Origin: Candidatus Pelearchaeum maunauluense
Lineage (GTDB): Archaea > Thermoproteota > Nitrososphaeria_A > Caldarchaeales > Caldarchaeaceae
Assembly: GCA_030059675.1 (NCBI GenBank)
Contig: JANVYQ010000004.1
Span: 96,001 to 160,000, forward strand
Direction of reading: 5' to 3'
DNA length: 64,000 bases
Part shown: in pieces, positions 8,283 through 16,417 of the stretch
How the letters are laid out: each line of letters begins with the position of its first letter
Position numbering within the stretch: position 1 is the first letter of the stretch
The notes under the pieces: model-generated
The model's database searches: none
What the model was told of the DNA's origin: nothing
The model's input: the letters and a program-made list of their open reading frames with translations, nothing else
Made by a program: the position numbers and the translations under genes

Positions 8283-8888
8283 TTGTTAAAACTCATTAAA
8301 GCCCTCCTAGTACGTATCTCGCGTTTCCTAAAGTACTCAGGTAAGGATGTTATTGCGCGCCGCTATTTTGTCTTAAGCGTCTTTGACGGAACCCTAGCCG
8401 CCTTCGGGATAGTTGTTGGGGCTAACTTTGTGAGGGGCACAAGCCCAGCCACGATAGTGGCCGCTGGTATAGGGGCCGCCGTGGCCATGCTCATATCAGG
8501 TGTTACTGGGAGTTTCATGACTGAGACTGCCGAGAGTAAGAAGAGGTTGAAGGAGATTGAGGAAGCCATGTTGGCCGACATGGATGAGAGCATAGTTGCG
8601 GAGGCTGGAAGCTACGGCGCTATAATAGCAGCGCTCATCAACGGCTTGGCTCAATTCGCAGCGGCAACAACTGTGCTCCTACCATACATAATATCACTAT
8701 TCTACCCAACAATAGTGGGGATAGCGCTCTACGCCTCCTTCGCGATAGCTCTGGCCATGATATTCACTCTGGGAACGATACTAGCCAAGGTATCGCGCCA
8801 GAATATACTCGATATGAGTATAAAGATGCTCGCGGTCGGGCTTCTCGCCATAATGCTGATACTCCTACTACAGTTCTTCGCTGGCTAG
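8283..8888 (+). CDS. VIT1/CCC1-like membrane protein
   Basis: [24 protein letters not shown], multiple TM helices. Confidence 0.82.
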
Positions 8889-9962
8889 CCTGTAAGAAAT
8901 TTTAGAAGCTCACGCGGCTGGAAGACCCCTTTCTCCGTTATTATTGCGCTGACAAGCTCTGGCGGCGTGATGTCAAAAGCGGGATTTAACGCGTGTGCGC
9001 CGCGCGGCGTTATCCTTGTACGACCAACATAATGAACTTCATCCTCGGAACGATGCTCAATAACGACCTCGTCAACCCGCTTCCTGAGGTCAACCGTTGA
9101 CATGGGAGCAGCTACGTAGAAGGGAATTTTGAAGTAGTTCGCATTCACGGCAAGGGTTAGAGTCCCTATTTTATTTATTACGTGCCCCGTCTGCGCCAGT
9201 ATGCGGTCGGCGCCCACTATCACTTTATCCACCTTGCCCTGCGACATTAGAAACCCAGCCATGTTATCTGTTATGACTGTTGTAGGTATTCCGTCGCGCA
9301 TAAGTTCGAAGACTGTGAGGCGTGCTCCCTGGAGGCGAGGCCTAGTCTCACTGGCGTAAACCTCTATCCTCTTACCCTGCTCCACGGCAGCCCTTATGAC
9401 CCCCAGAGCTGTTCCATAGCCTACTGTGGCGAGTGCCCCCGCACTCTGCTGACCCAGCGGTAAACGGCTTGGGTCATTTACAGAGCGTGAGCACCCTATC
9501 GCCGTCGTTAAGCAGCTCGGCGCCAAACCTGCCTATCGCCTTATTCGTCTCCACATCCTCGTCAGCCATCTTTAGAGCTTCTAAGAGGACAGCTTGACGT
9601 ACGTCGTCAGCGTCTCCATCGGTTCTACGAGCCTTCTCCATCACCCGCTCAATAGCCCAGAATAGGTTAACGGCAGTAGGCCTGGTTGATGCTAGATACT
9701 TCGCAGCTTCCTCAAGCTCGTTAAGAATCTCTTCTCTGCTTTTTGCGTTGGACTTTACCGCGCAGAGGGCAAGTCCCATGGCGGCGGCAACGCCTATTGC
9801 TGGGGCTCCCCTAACAACCATGCGCTTAATAGCCTCACCAACCCCGCGGTAGTCTCTAAACCTTATAAAGCGAAACCTCTGGGGAAGGGCTGTCTGGTCT
9901 ATCATAACAACCTCAGACCTAGAGTCATCCCAGTAGATTGTTCGTATCTCCTTCTTCATCAT
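8885..9962 (-). CDS. mtnA: S-methyl-5-thioribose-1-phosphate isomerase (eIF2B-like family), two exons 9962-9478 and 9443-8885
   Basis: [46 protein letters not shown]; splicing 34 nt gives a 347-aa frame reading VLTLCNAGALAT. Confidence 0.88.
9444..9477 (-). other. Putative BHB/BHL-type intron in mtnA mRNA (34 nt)
   Basis: CUGU-AA^A-UGACCCA...UGGGUCA-GCAG-AG^U; contains the in-frame stop and accounts for the frame offset. Confidence 0.82.
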
Positions 9963-10020
9963 CAAAGAGATGAACGAAACCGCGGTGATTAAACATTTTC
10001 TCAGCATAGCGGGAGATGGT

Positions 10021-10992
10021 TCATGAGGAGGCGAGCGCCTCCTCTTCGTATGACAAGACGTCAACAGGTTTCCCAGTTTTAGCCGAGTGGAGTATGGCCT
10101 CCGCTACGAGCTCGGCGGTGTAACCATCACCCACCCCCACCAGCGGCTCTCTTTTACTCCTAACACACTCTATAAAATGCTCCAACTCAAGACGCAGCGG
10201 CTCACTATACTTTATCATAGGCATCTTAACCGCATCCGCTTTCTCTATGGTGAGCTCCTGTTCTATGAACTTTAAGCTAATCACACCATCATCACCAGTT
10301 ATGTGCATCTCCCTCTTCTTACGCGGCGTGAGCCAGTTAGCTTCTATGAGGGCGCTTCTCCCGTTGGTAAATGTGAGAGTAGCTTGTATGTGGTCTTCAA
10401 GTCTATGTCTCAAAGAGCCGCCGCGCGCATACACGTTGAGAGGTGTTGAGCCAAATATGTAGGTTGTTAAATCTATGTCATGTATCGCCGTGTCCTTGAC
10501 AACCCCCACGTCTCCTATCCTCTCAGGCCAGCTTCCAATCCTCCTACTATACGAGAGAATTATACTCCCTATCTCGCCCTGGTCAAGAAGCTCCTTAGCA
10601 GCTTTAACCACTGGGTTAAACCGCTCAAGAAACCCCACCATAACAACCGTATTACTGGATTTCGCGGCATCAACTATCTTTATAGAATCCTGTATGCTAG
10701 TGGCCATCGGCTTCTCAATCAATACCGATATTCCACGTTCTATTGCTTTTAGAGAAAGCTCGGCATGCGTGGTTGATGGTGTGCATATTGTTATAGCGTC
10801 TGGCTCCACTCTATCTAATAACGTATCATAGTCCGTGAAGTATTTTGGTATTTGGTACTTCTTGGCAGCGTTCTCTGCGCGTGTGGCGTCTATATCGCAG
10901 ACGCCAACTATAGTGCATCTTTCCAGCTCCCGAAGAATCCTCAAATGGTTTCTGCCCCAGAAGCCAGCGCCTGCTACGGCAACCCTAACCAT
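10021..10992 (-). CDS. Gfo/Idh/MocA oxidoreductase (UDP-GlcNAc 3-dehydrogenase-like)
   Basis: GAGFWG, EKP, ERFNP, DVGVVKDTAIHDID, WLTPRKKR. Confidence 0.88.
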   Translation of the reverse strand: MVRVAVAGAGFWGRNHLRILRELERCTIVGVCDIDATRAENAAKKYQIPKYFTDYDTLLDRVEPDAITICTPSTTHAELSLKAIERGISVLIEKPMATSIQDSIKIVDAAKSSNTVVMVGFLERFNPVVKAAKELLDQGEIGSIILSYSRRIGSWPERIGDVGVVKDTAIHDIDLTTYIFGSTPLNVYARGGSLRHRLEDHIQATLTFTNGRSALIEANWLTPRKKREMHITGDDGVISLKFIEQELTIEKADAVKMPMIKYSEPLRLELEHFIECVRSKREPLVGVGDGYTAELVAEAILHSAKTGKPVDVLSYEEEALASS

Positions 10993-16302: not shown

Positions 16303-16417
16303 GGGCCCGTAGCCTAGAATGGATAGGGCGTCGGCCTGCGGAGCCGGAGAGGGACAGCATGAAAAAGGGAGCGCGGTCCCCCGCAAGTCCCGGGTTCAAG
16401 TCCCGGCGGGCCCACCA
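16303..16417 (+). tRNA. tRNA-Arg(GCG) with 37-nt intron at 45/46 (16350-16386) and encoded CCA
   Basis: GGGCCCG acceptor stem, anticodon arm TCGGC-CTGCGGA-GCCGG, T arm CCGGG-TTCAAGT-CCCGG; splicing restores the AGGTC variable loop. Confidence 0.9.

Follow-up and report, generated by a model that had tools for sequence, protein, structure and literature searches.

Candidatus Pelearchaeum maunauluense, an archaeon of the order Caldarchaeales within the Thermoproteota, harbours an mtnA gene whose coding sequence is interrupted beside the codon for its catalytic cysteine. The gene lies on the minus strand of a stretch of 64,000 nucleotides (nt) of contig JANVYQ010000004.1 (assembly GCA_030059675.1, positions 96,001 to 160,000), which was analysed as a whole and is here called the window; coordinates are window positions. 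The 34 nt at 9477..9444(-), which break up a gene of the IF-2B/MtnA family, are best explained as an intron in the mtnA messenger RNA of the type removed by the archaeal endonuclease that splices transfer RNA (tRNA), a reading that we would give a probability of roughly 0.87. The insert is very probably a genuine messenger RNA intron, of a kind so far described for one other gene only. Excision and exon ligation themselves we infer from sequence comparisons.

An mtnA gene in two frames

At the break the minus-strand frame reads ACG CTC TGT AAA TGA. The upstream open reading frame (ORF), 9474..10064(-), accordingly ends in LTLCK and a stop, and the downstream ORF, 8885..9526(-), overlaps it in a different frame. 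The coordinates of the two halves on family profiles are 1-155 and 157-331 for NF004700, 2-158 and 160-334 for TIGR00512, 2-126 and 128-303 for TIGR00524, and 2-114 and 117-280 for PF01008. As the halves abut on the NCBIfam profiles with one position absent, exactly one residue is missing between them. Scripted deletion of 9444-9477 joins AA to U, yields a single open frame of 347 codons plus stop and restores the missing profile position, which is the Asn of the motif T-x-C-N-A-G. A preliminary description of this DNA had proposed that mtnA is divided between two frames and that removal of the 34 nt produces a 347-residue ORF; the ORFs, the abutting profiles and the scripted deletion bear this out.

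On the basis of a full-length family match made up by the two halves, the predicted product of mtnA is S-methyl-5-thioribose-1-phosphate isomerase. Run separately, the halves score 136.1 and 245.7 bits against TIGR00512 (cut-off 279) and 161 and 264.9 bits against NF004326 (cut-off 271), sums of such scores being rough, and 175.8 and 245.9 bits against NF004700, under the cut-off of 528. The family also includes ribose-1,5-bisphosphate isomerases, but the scores for TIGR00511 are lower here (79.9 and 141.4 bits).

Homology to solved MtnA chains begins at their residues 2-8 for exon 1, which corresponds to the ATG at 9962. Mechanical ORF calling runs this exon further upstream to a TTG at 10064, into overlap with the neighbouring gene at 10021..10992(-), and likewise lengthens exon 2 at its 5' end by 28 codons, as far as a TTG at 9526. 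Owing to these extended starts, automatic annotation gives two plausible-looking fragments of 196 and 213 residues.

The last residue of exon 1 aligns with residue 135 of chain 5yfj_A (P. horikoshii PH0208) and also with the terminal Cys of several solved MtnA chains. PH0208 is a paralogous isomerase, for which the accessible text of PMC5789824 gives Cys135 and Asp204 as catalytic. The exon-1 Cys being aligned with this catalytic residue, the putative intron begins two bases past the catalytic Cys codon, in agreement with the placement originally suggested. The matching catalytic residue of B. subtilis we take to be Cys160. The motif T-x-C-N-[AT]-G is present in all 125 intronless homologues read, and its Asn is invariant.

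The same insert in other genomes

The insert is not private to the window genome: its recurrence marks it as a conserved feature of mtnA in several lineages of Thermoproteota, from some of which it appears to have been precisely lost. Its sequence was read in 41 genomes and nine metagenome contigs, where it measures 19-41 nt and occupies the identical site and phase. The lineages bearing it are the Caldarchaeales, a Bathyarchaeota-labelled lineage and two further families, designated f13 and f35.

The family of the window genome comprises 18 genomes, 16 of which contain the gene at E <= 1e-40. In nine of the 16 the insert is found at the exact base (G000, the window genome, and G001, G002, G004, G005, G007, G011, G012 and G014), with lengths, in the same order, of 34, 33, 29, 27, 27, 27, 29, 29 and 29 nt; the remaining seven (G003, G006, G008, G009, G010, G013 and G015) have an uninterrupted TGY AAY GCN. 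G016 contains a C-terminal fragment of mtnA only, and no mtnA match was obtained in G017, which is 76% complete. A 33-nt version of the insert is present in a related 'Candidatus Pelearchaeum' metagenome-assembled genome (MAG; locus L033), an independent assembly. Nine of 70 metagenome loci carry the insert, and a contig labelled 'Candidatus Bathyarchaeota archaeon' (L047) shows one of 28 nt in the identical position. Relatives of the Bathyarchaeota-labelled genome (60 genomes, 30 loci) are divided into 17 loci with the insert and 13 without.

Split frames were also seen in families f13, f22, f35, f42 and f59 among the best 150 of 370 matches from 401 sampled genomes of the phylum. The loci fetched contained the insert in 6/6 cases for f13 and 9/9 for f35, and two others, L217 and L218, were without it. 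When 151 genomes drawn evenly from the phylum were searched with a covariance model of the element, 11 full-length matches of 56-80 bits were obtained, distributed as two in f1 (including the window genome), 7/8 in f13 and 2/2 in f22; five further matches of 48 nt are intronless junctions. Within the window genome mtnA was the sole match. Junctions were counted at 181 loci with an exon-2 match from residue 1-2 and at least 120 nt upstream, L006, L038 and others being dropped: 125 are intronless, and 56 contain an insert, representing 42 distinct contexts.

A conserved, probable splice motif

The mechanism proposed is as follows. In the transcript, CUGU before the Asn codon and GCAG close to the insert's 3' end would form a 4-base-pair (bp) central helix, H. 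Next to this helix, an AAA bulge and a 7-bp intron hairpin, whose stem is termed h', would lie on one side, and an AGU loop closed by a CGC/GCG exon-exon helix, h, on the other. A two-paralogue endonuclease of crenarchaeal type would then cut past the second nucleotide of each loop and RtcB would join the exons, with AA and U forming the invariant Asn codon after the catalytic Cys. The spliced messenger would permit synthesis of the 347-residue enzyme; unspliced RNA would give a truncated N-terminal fragment only.

All of the parts that the preliminary description had listed, namely the intron stem, the AAA bulge, CUGU/GCAG, AGU opposite U and CGC/GCG, are present in the window. A further distal exon helix, GUGCUC/GGGCAC, is likewise present there, but lacks conservation: of 13 variants, 11 leave its pair 9-68 open and 10 leave pair 10-67 open. 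The minimum free energy (MFE) fold of 9420-9500(-) reaches -37.6 kcal/mol (z = -3.35), with 2/200 shuffles as good, and contains the 7-bp stem, the AAA bulge and a continuous competing helix of 8 bp.

The motif recurs when contexts are compared with no structural model. In a count anchored on the two splice sites only, H is paired at 4/4 positions in 41 of the 42 contexts as printed; the other, L192, was mis-parsed and printed as 3/4, and on re-reading shows CUGU/GCAG at 4/4 with a true insert of 24 nt. The stem h' beside the 5' bulge measures 3-11 bp in the 41 correctly parsed contexts. The 5' loop reads AA↓A or AA↓U and the 3' loop A-N↓U or A-N↓C (arrows mark the predicted cuts); the second base of the 3' loop varies between A, G and U, and the first is A throughout the variants read. 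The starts of the stem are wholly different among lineages (UGA..UCA, UGG..CCA, CAG..CUG, UAA..UUA and UAG..CUA).

Alignments reveal the accompanying covariation. A MAFFT alignment of 13 variants has H 100% and h' 96.3% paired, with changes on both sides at 5/7 h' pairs. In an alignment of 43 variants fitted to the model, H is paired in 100% of 172 cells and h' in 96.8%, all 6/6 modelled h' pairs are compensatory (96 cells), and registers slid by 1-3 columns pair 23-43% only. An alignment of orthologues, which had been suggested earlier as a check for stem covariation, accordingly shows compensatory changes at every modelled h' pair. MFE folds of the 43 variants form the central helix in 33 and leave the 5' bulge open in 37.

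Several points weigh against the interpretation as an endonuclease substrate. Since the sequences are related, the finding that 0/500 shuffles reach the covariation score, in the MAFFT and in the model-fitted alignment, overstates significance; in addition, the 43-variant alignment is fitted to the model and leans towards structure, which the anchor-based count does not. The outer exon helix h is 81.4% paired overall and has 1 bp only in some lineages. The 3' site departs from a strict 3-nt bulge: all three bases are open in 5/43 MFE folds, and the strict form costs a median of 1.1 kcal/mol and 3.1 kcal/mol in the window, where the MFE fold buries the 3' site within the 8-bp helix. The 3' loop is usually narrowed to 2 nt by an A-U pair and in the window forms a 1x3 internal loop; the window and the two variants nearest to it have U as the base facing this loop, and the other 40/43 have A.

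As modelled, the motif is therefore a relaxed HBh'-like form and not a strict bulge-helix-bulge (BHB). The geometry of the tRNA endonuclease, as first claimed for this site, holds for the central helix, the 5' bulge, the h' stem and the cutting rule, and has to be amended at the 3' site, which is relaxed. Such relaxed motifs are assigned to hetero-oligomeric and epsilon-type endonucleases in the accessible parts of PMC6379350, PMC4090602 and PMC5829648.

Coding consequences and selection

The rule of cutting after the second nucleotide derives from the canonical tRNA 37/38 site, at which the central helix ends with anticodon bases 34 and 35, according to the portions of PMC4090602 consulted. 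When applied to mtnA, it rebuilds an Asn codon, AAU or AAC, in every variant. At two loci, L192 (genome G054) and L214 (genome G303), the first base of exon 2 is C and not U, and the rebuilt codon is AAC.

Removal of the insert gives a full-length homologue in 55/56 loci, the remaining one stopping at a contig end. Inserts whose length keeps the frame (24, 27, 30 and 33 nt) all introduce a stop within 1-5 codons and the other lengths shift the frame, so that the insert must be removed in every case. The ratio of non-synonymous to synonymous differences (pN/pS) lies at 0.10-0.27 for exon 1 and at 0.02-0.33 for exon 2 in 10/10 pairs of intron-bearing genes; judged by these ratios, both exons are under purifying selection. 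The intact products and the selection on both halves back the original view that the gene is functional and no pseudogene.

The codons that contribute to the motif show a bias of their own. The wobble base before the Cys codon is C in 19/20 intron-bearing contexts as printed (the sole exception, L092, has a mis-parsed 5' site) versus 48/82 intronless ones, and the Ala wobble base is G in 13/20 versus 9/82, both contrasts being inflated by kinship. In an intronless clade of Caldarchaeum genomes nested within the family of the window genome (L009, L010 and L012-L016), ACG for Thr, CAC for His and GCG for Ala have drifted to other synonymous codons. Such wobble drift after intron loss fits a release from RNA-structure constraint.

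Table 1. Coordinates of the mtnA exons and of the predicted intron motif (window positions; arrows mark predicted cuts)
Feature	Position	Strand	Remarks
Exon 1 of mtnA	9478..9962	-	ATG 9962 to AA of the split Asn codon; catalytic Cys codon TGT at 9482-9480
Predicted intron, 34 nt	9444..9477	-	In the unspliced frame, stop UGA at 9476-9474, one codon past the 5' splice site
Exon 2 of mtnA	8885..9443	-	U 9443 completes AAU (Asn), followed by GCG GGG; stop at 8887-8885
Central helix H, 5' strand CUGU (exon 1)	9480..9483	-	Partner strand 9446-9449; every pair formed in all 43 variants
Central helix H, 3' strand GCAG (intron)	9446..9449	-	
5' bulge AA↓A	9477..9479	-	Predicted cut between 9478 and 9477, after the second base
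Intron stem h', 5' arm UGACCCA	9470..9476	-	7 bp with 9450-9456
Intron loop, 13 nt	9457..9469	-	Sequence and length differ among lineages
Intron stem h', 3' arm UGGGUCA	9450..9456	-	
3' splice-site loop AG↓U	9443..9445	-	Predicted cut between 9444 and 9443; faces U 9484
Outer exon-exon helix h, 5' strand CGC	9485..9487	-	Its three pairs form in 30, 32 and 43 variants out of 43
Outer exon-exon helix h, 3' strand GCG (Ala codon)	9440..9442	-	Pairs with 9485-9487

Alternative explanations

The alternative that survives best retains the intron and makes its splicing conditional: a competing helix would mask the 3' site, and MtnA synthesis would be gated by temperature or by the level of the endonuclease. 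The preliminary description had raised this idea, and the 8-bp helix on which it is founded is indeed the MFE structure in the window and in its nearest relative, where it is 3.1 kcal/mol better than the open form; moreover, an intron beside the catalytic codon could act as an all-or-none switch. The masking helix nevertheless needs U 9484, a base that only the three variants nearest the window possess (A in 40/43), and for most lineages the price of the open form is about 1.1 kcal/mol. With this U confined to three variants, all from the window's own genus, conditional splicing is not a conserved property of the element, and we regard it as improbable.

Translational bypassing, or hopping, would do without splicing: the ribosome would take off after the Cys codon, skip the hairpin and land before GCG. 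In the bypass of phage T4 gene 60, a stop codon and a hairpin lie directly past the last decoded codon, and matching take-off and landing codons are required. The likeness to mtnA extends to the stop and hairpin, for many variants have a stop right after the take-off codon with the hairpin beginning at that stop, and AAU stands at both borders in 14/42 contexts. Border triplets differ, however, in the other 28/42, including the window (AAA versus AGU), where either a Lys would be inserted or re-pairing would fail even though the Asn is invariant in the 125 intronless homologues. Lineages with stems starting in CAG have no stop directly past the take-off codon, and hopping would leave the 4-bp helix by which exon 1 pairs with the 3' end of the insert, together with its conservation and covariation, without a role. 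Because the triplets match in only a third of the contexts and the invariant Asn would be replaced in the window, hopping fails as an account of the insert and is held to be highly improbable.

No better prospects attach to a naturally split enzyme, in which the two ORFs would be translated apart and the products then assemble, the insert being an intergenic spacer. Gene callers would indeed give two ORFs, and the exon-2 frame of the window is open from TTG 9526. Yet in 32/43 variants the exon-2 frame offers no ATG, GTG or TTG from the preceding stop up to the Ala codon, and this lack of a start codon is what defeats the idea; the first ATG in exon 2 comes 19-65 codons in, past the conserved AGALAT motif. 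The invariant Asn would be missing or replaced, and a spacer would not be expected to retain a paired structure with compensatory changes.

Finally, a frame-breaking 34-nt insert in a MAG can look like a dying pseudogene or like an error of sequencing or assembly. Either has a negligible probability, because independent assemblies and samples repeat the insert at one and the same base, the genes show no further lesions and give full-length products after its removal in all but the one truncated locus, and pN/pS is 0.02-0.33 over both halves; nor does either of the other two IF-2B-family matches in the window genome reach E 1e-45 with an exon-2 query.

Splicing machinery and other candidates in the genome

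The genome to which the window belongs encodes two EndA paralogues (PF01974). One matches chain 3p1z_B at 4e-49 and is close to other crenarchaeal EndA chains, and the second is divergent; from their motifs, the two are presumably the catalytic alpha and the structural beta subunit. Judged by these genes, the endonuclease is of the two-paralogue crenarchaeal type and is predicted to have broad specificity. RtcB is present as well (575.9 bits).

The same genome has a split cbf5 gene, in which 23 nt at C9:2441-2463(-) interrupt the codon for the catalytic Asp (G↓AU). This insert, whose exon-exon helix has 7 bp, whose central helix is CUCU/GGGG and whose loops read AG↓A and AA↓A, represents the classic archaeal messenger RNA intron, here in a Caldarchaeales genome, and its removal restores GGTLDPAVSGVLP. 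Cutting after the second nucleotide yields the G↓AU boundary in the Asp codon, which is where Yokobori et al. place the cbf5 intron in the accessible text of PMC2738675.

A tRNA gene at window positions 16303-16414(+), scored at 52.3 bits with Rfam and having the anticodon loop CUGCGGA, contains an insert of about 38 nt that separates the anticodon arm from the T arm, where an intron is non-canonical. This tRNA is absent from the ARAGORN predictions.

A genome-wide scan for a BHB motif combined with an open frame, as had been recommended at the outset, produced 240 loose candidates including the mtnA site. Eight of the 240 have an intron stem of at least 5 bp and a loop of at most 20 nt, and the mtnA site is one of two among these with seven Watson-Crick pairs, the maximum found. 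The scan is unspecific, and its failure to pick up cbf5 shows that the filter is blind to relaxed motifs. Three of the eight candidates were checked with Pfam. A near-perfect BHB-like hairpin at C20:90896-90923(+), with an 8-bp stem and a 4-bp central helix, was rejected as a coding intron: its flanks belong to unrelated families (a phosphoglucose-isomerase-like gene with a PGI SIS domain and a SpoIIM-like gene), which makes it an intergenic hairpin. It might, for instance, take part in processing a polycistronic RNA. The ORFs flanking the candidates at C14:186671-186692(-) and C14:128658-128694(-) match no Pfam family.

Relation to known systems

The closest precedent is the pre-messenger RNA intron of cbf5 in Crenarchaeota, reportedly described by Watanabe and co-workers in 2002 and by Yoshinari and co-workers in 2006. 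To judge from the accessible text of Yokobori 2009 (PMC2738675), the cbf5 and mtnA elements are both short inserts in a protein-coding gene with a relaxed BHB motif, occurring in hosts with a hetero-oligomeric endonuclease. Both are located at a catalytic residue, inside the Asp codon in cbf5 and two bases past the Cys codon in mtnA; in both, some lengths keep the frame and removal is still required; and both have a patchy distribution with secondary losses. The two differ in that mtnA belongs to methionine salvage and cbf5 to RNA modification, and in that the mtnA intron is found in Caldarchaeales, the Bathyarchaeota-labelled lineage and further families. The mtnA element also possesses a regular intron hairpin with rich covariation. 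Whereas splicing of cbf5 has been proven by experiment, that of mtnA we infer from sequence.

Non-canonical tRNA introns with relaxed HBh' and hBH motifs are said to have been set out by Marck and Grosjean in 2003. As far as the available parts of PMC4090602 and PMC6379350 go, these introns and the mtnA insert (19-41 nt) share a 4-bp central helix, a cut after the second loop nucleotide, one well-formed bulge combined with one relaxed site, and a reliance on broad-specificity endonucleases. Unlike in the tRNA introns, the host RNA of the mtnA element is a messenger and its exon strands are constrained by codons, which leads to biased synonymous sites. In eukaryotes, the HAC1/XBP1 messengers are cut by a protein at two stem-loop sites and joined by tRNA ligase or RtcB, with a change of frame. 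There the nuclease is IRE1 and not the tRNA endonuclease, and the process is stress-regulated. The BHB intron in the 5' untranslated region (UTR) of HVO_1309 of Haloferax volcanii (Schwarz 2020, in the accessible text of PMC7714728) is likewise an endonuclease substrate in a messenger RNA, but it lies outside the coding region, interrupts no frame and has a euryarchaeal host.

In the portions of that 2020 study available (PMC7714728), cbf5 is the only additional BHB intron reported in archaea beside the 5'-UTR case, and papers up to 2025 cite the cbf5 work only, to judge by the reference list of PMC12397907. A literature search, which did not cover the supplementary lists of BHB candidates of PMC7714728 or Tocchini-Valentini 2011 (PNAS), found no publication on an mtnA intron. 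Among the best 120 database matches of an exon-1 query, no full-length protein is more than 67.8% identical to any of the spliced products, so that these 120 include no copy derived from cDNA, an observation that is neutral as regards splicing.

Evolution and significance

For the phylogeny, 101 archaeal MtnA rows were used, of which 45 have the intron and 56 lack it; identical duplicates were left out, as were bacterial and distant loci (L050-L091 and L116-L161) apart from four outgroups. In the resulting tree the family of the window genome forms one clade (Shimodaira-Hasegawa-like approximate likelihood ratio test, SH-aLRT, 98), at the base of which are intron-bearing rows, with an intronless clade of eight nested inside. 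This nesting indicates precise intron loss, and the same nested intronless clade is found in an earlier tree of 60 rows. At least eight changes are needed on the 101-row tree, two of them forced by well-supported branches, and at least four on the 60-row tree, three of them so forced, the backbone being unresolved in both. One ancient gain followed by many losses, gene transfer, and repeated gain at the same site cannot be told apart by these trees.

A wider proposal, which as a whole we consider rather unlikely, would hold that the mtnA intron either predates the split between Caldarchaeales and the Bathyarchaeota-labelled lineage or re-enters the same site; that together with cbf5 it would define a class of introns at codons for catalytic residues; that splicing by the tRNA machinery would be obligatory and possibly regulated; and that more such introns may reside in ORFs of Thermoproteota that appear frameshifted.

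As a second gene with dozens of natural variants and covariation, mtnA would furnish a comparative data set for the rules by which broad-specificity endonucleases may recognize substrates on messengers. Its intron would offer a clean case of how splicing coexists with coupled transcription and translation, and evidence on intron gain and precise loss. Because an mtnA with the intron passes for two fragments or for a pseudogene, methionine salvage is probably under-called in Caldarchaeales and Bathyarchaeota-type genomes.

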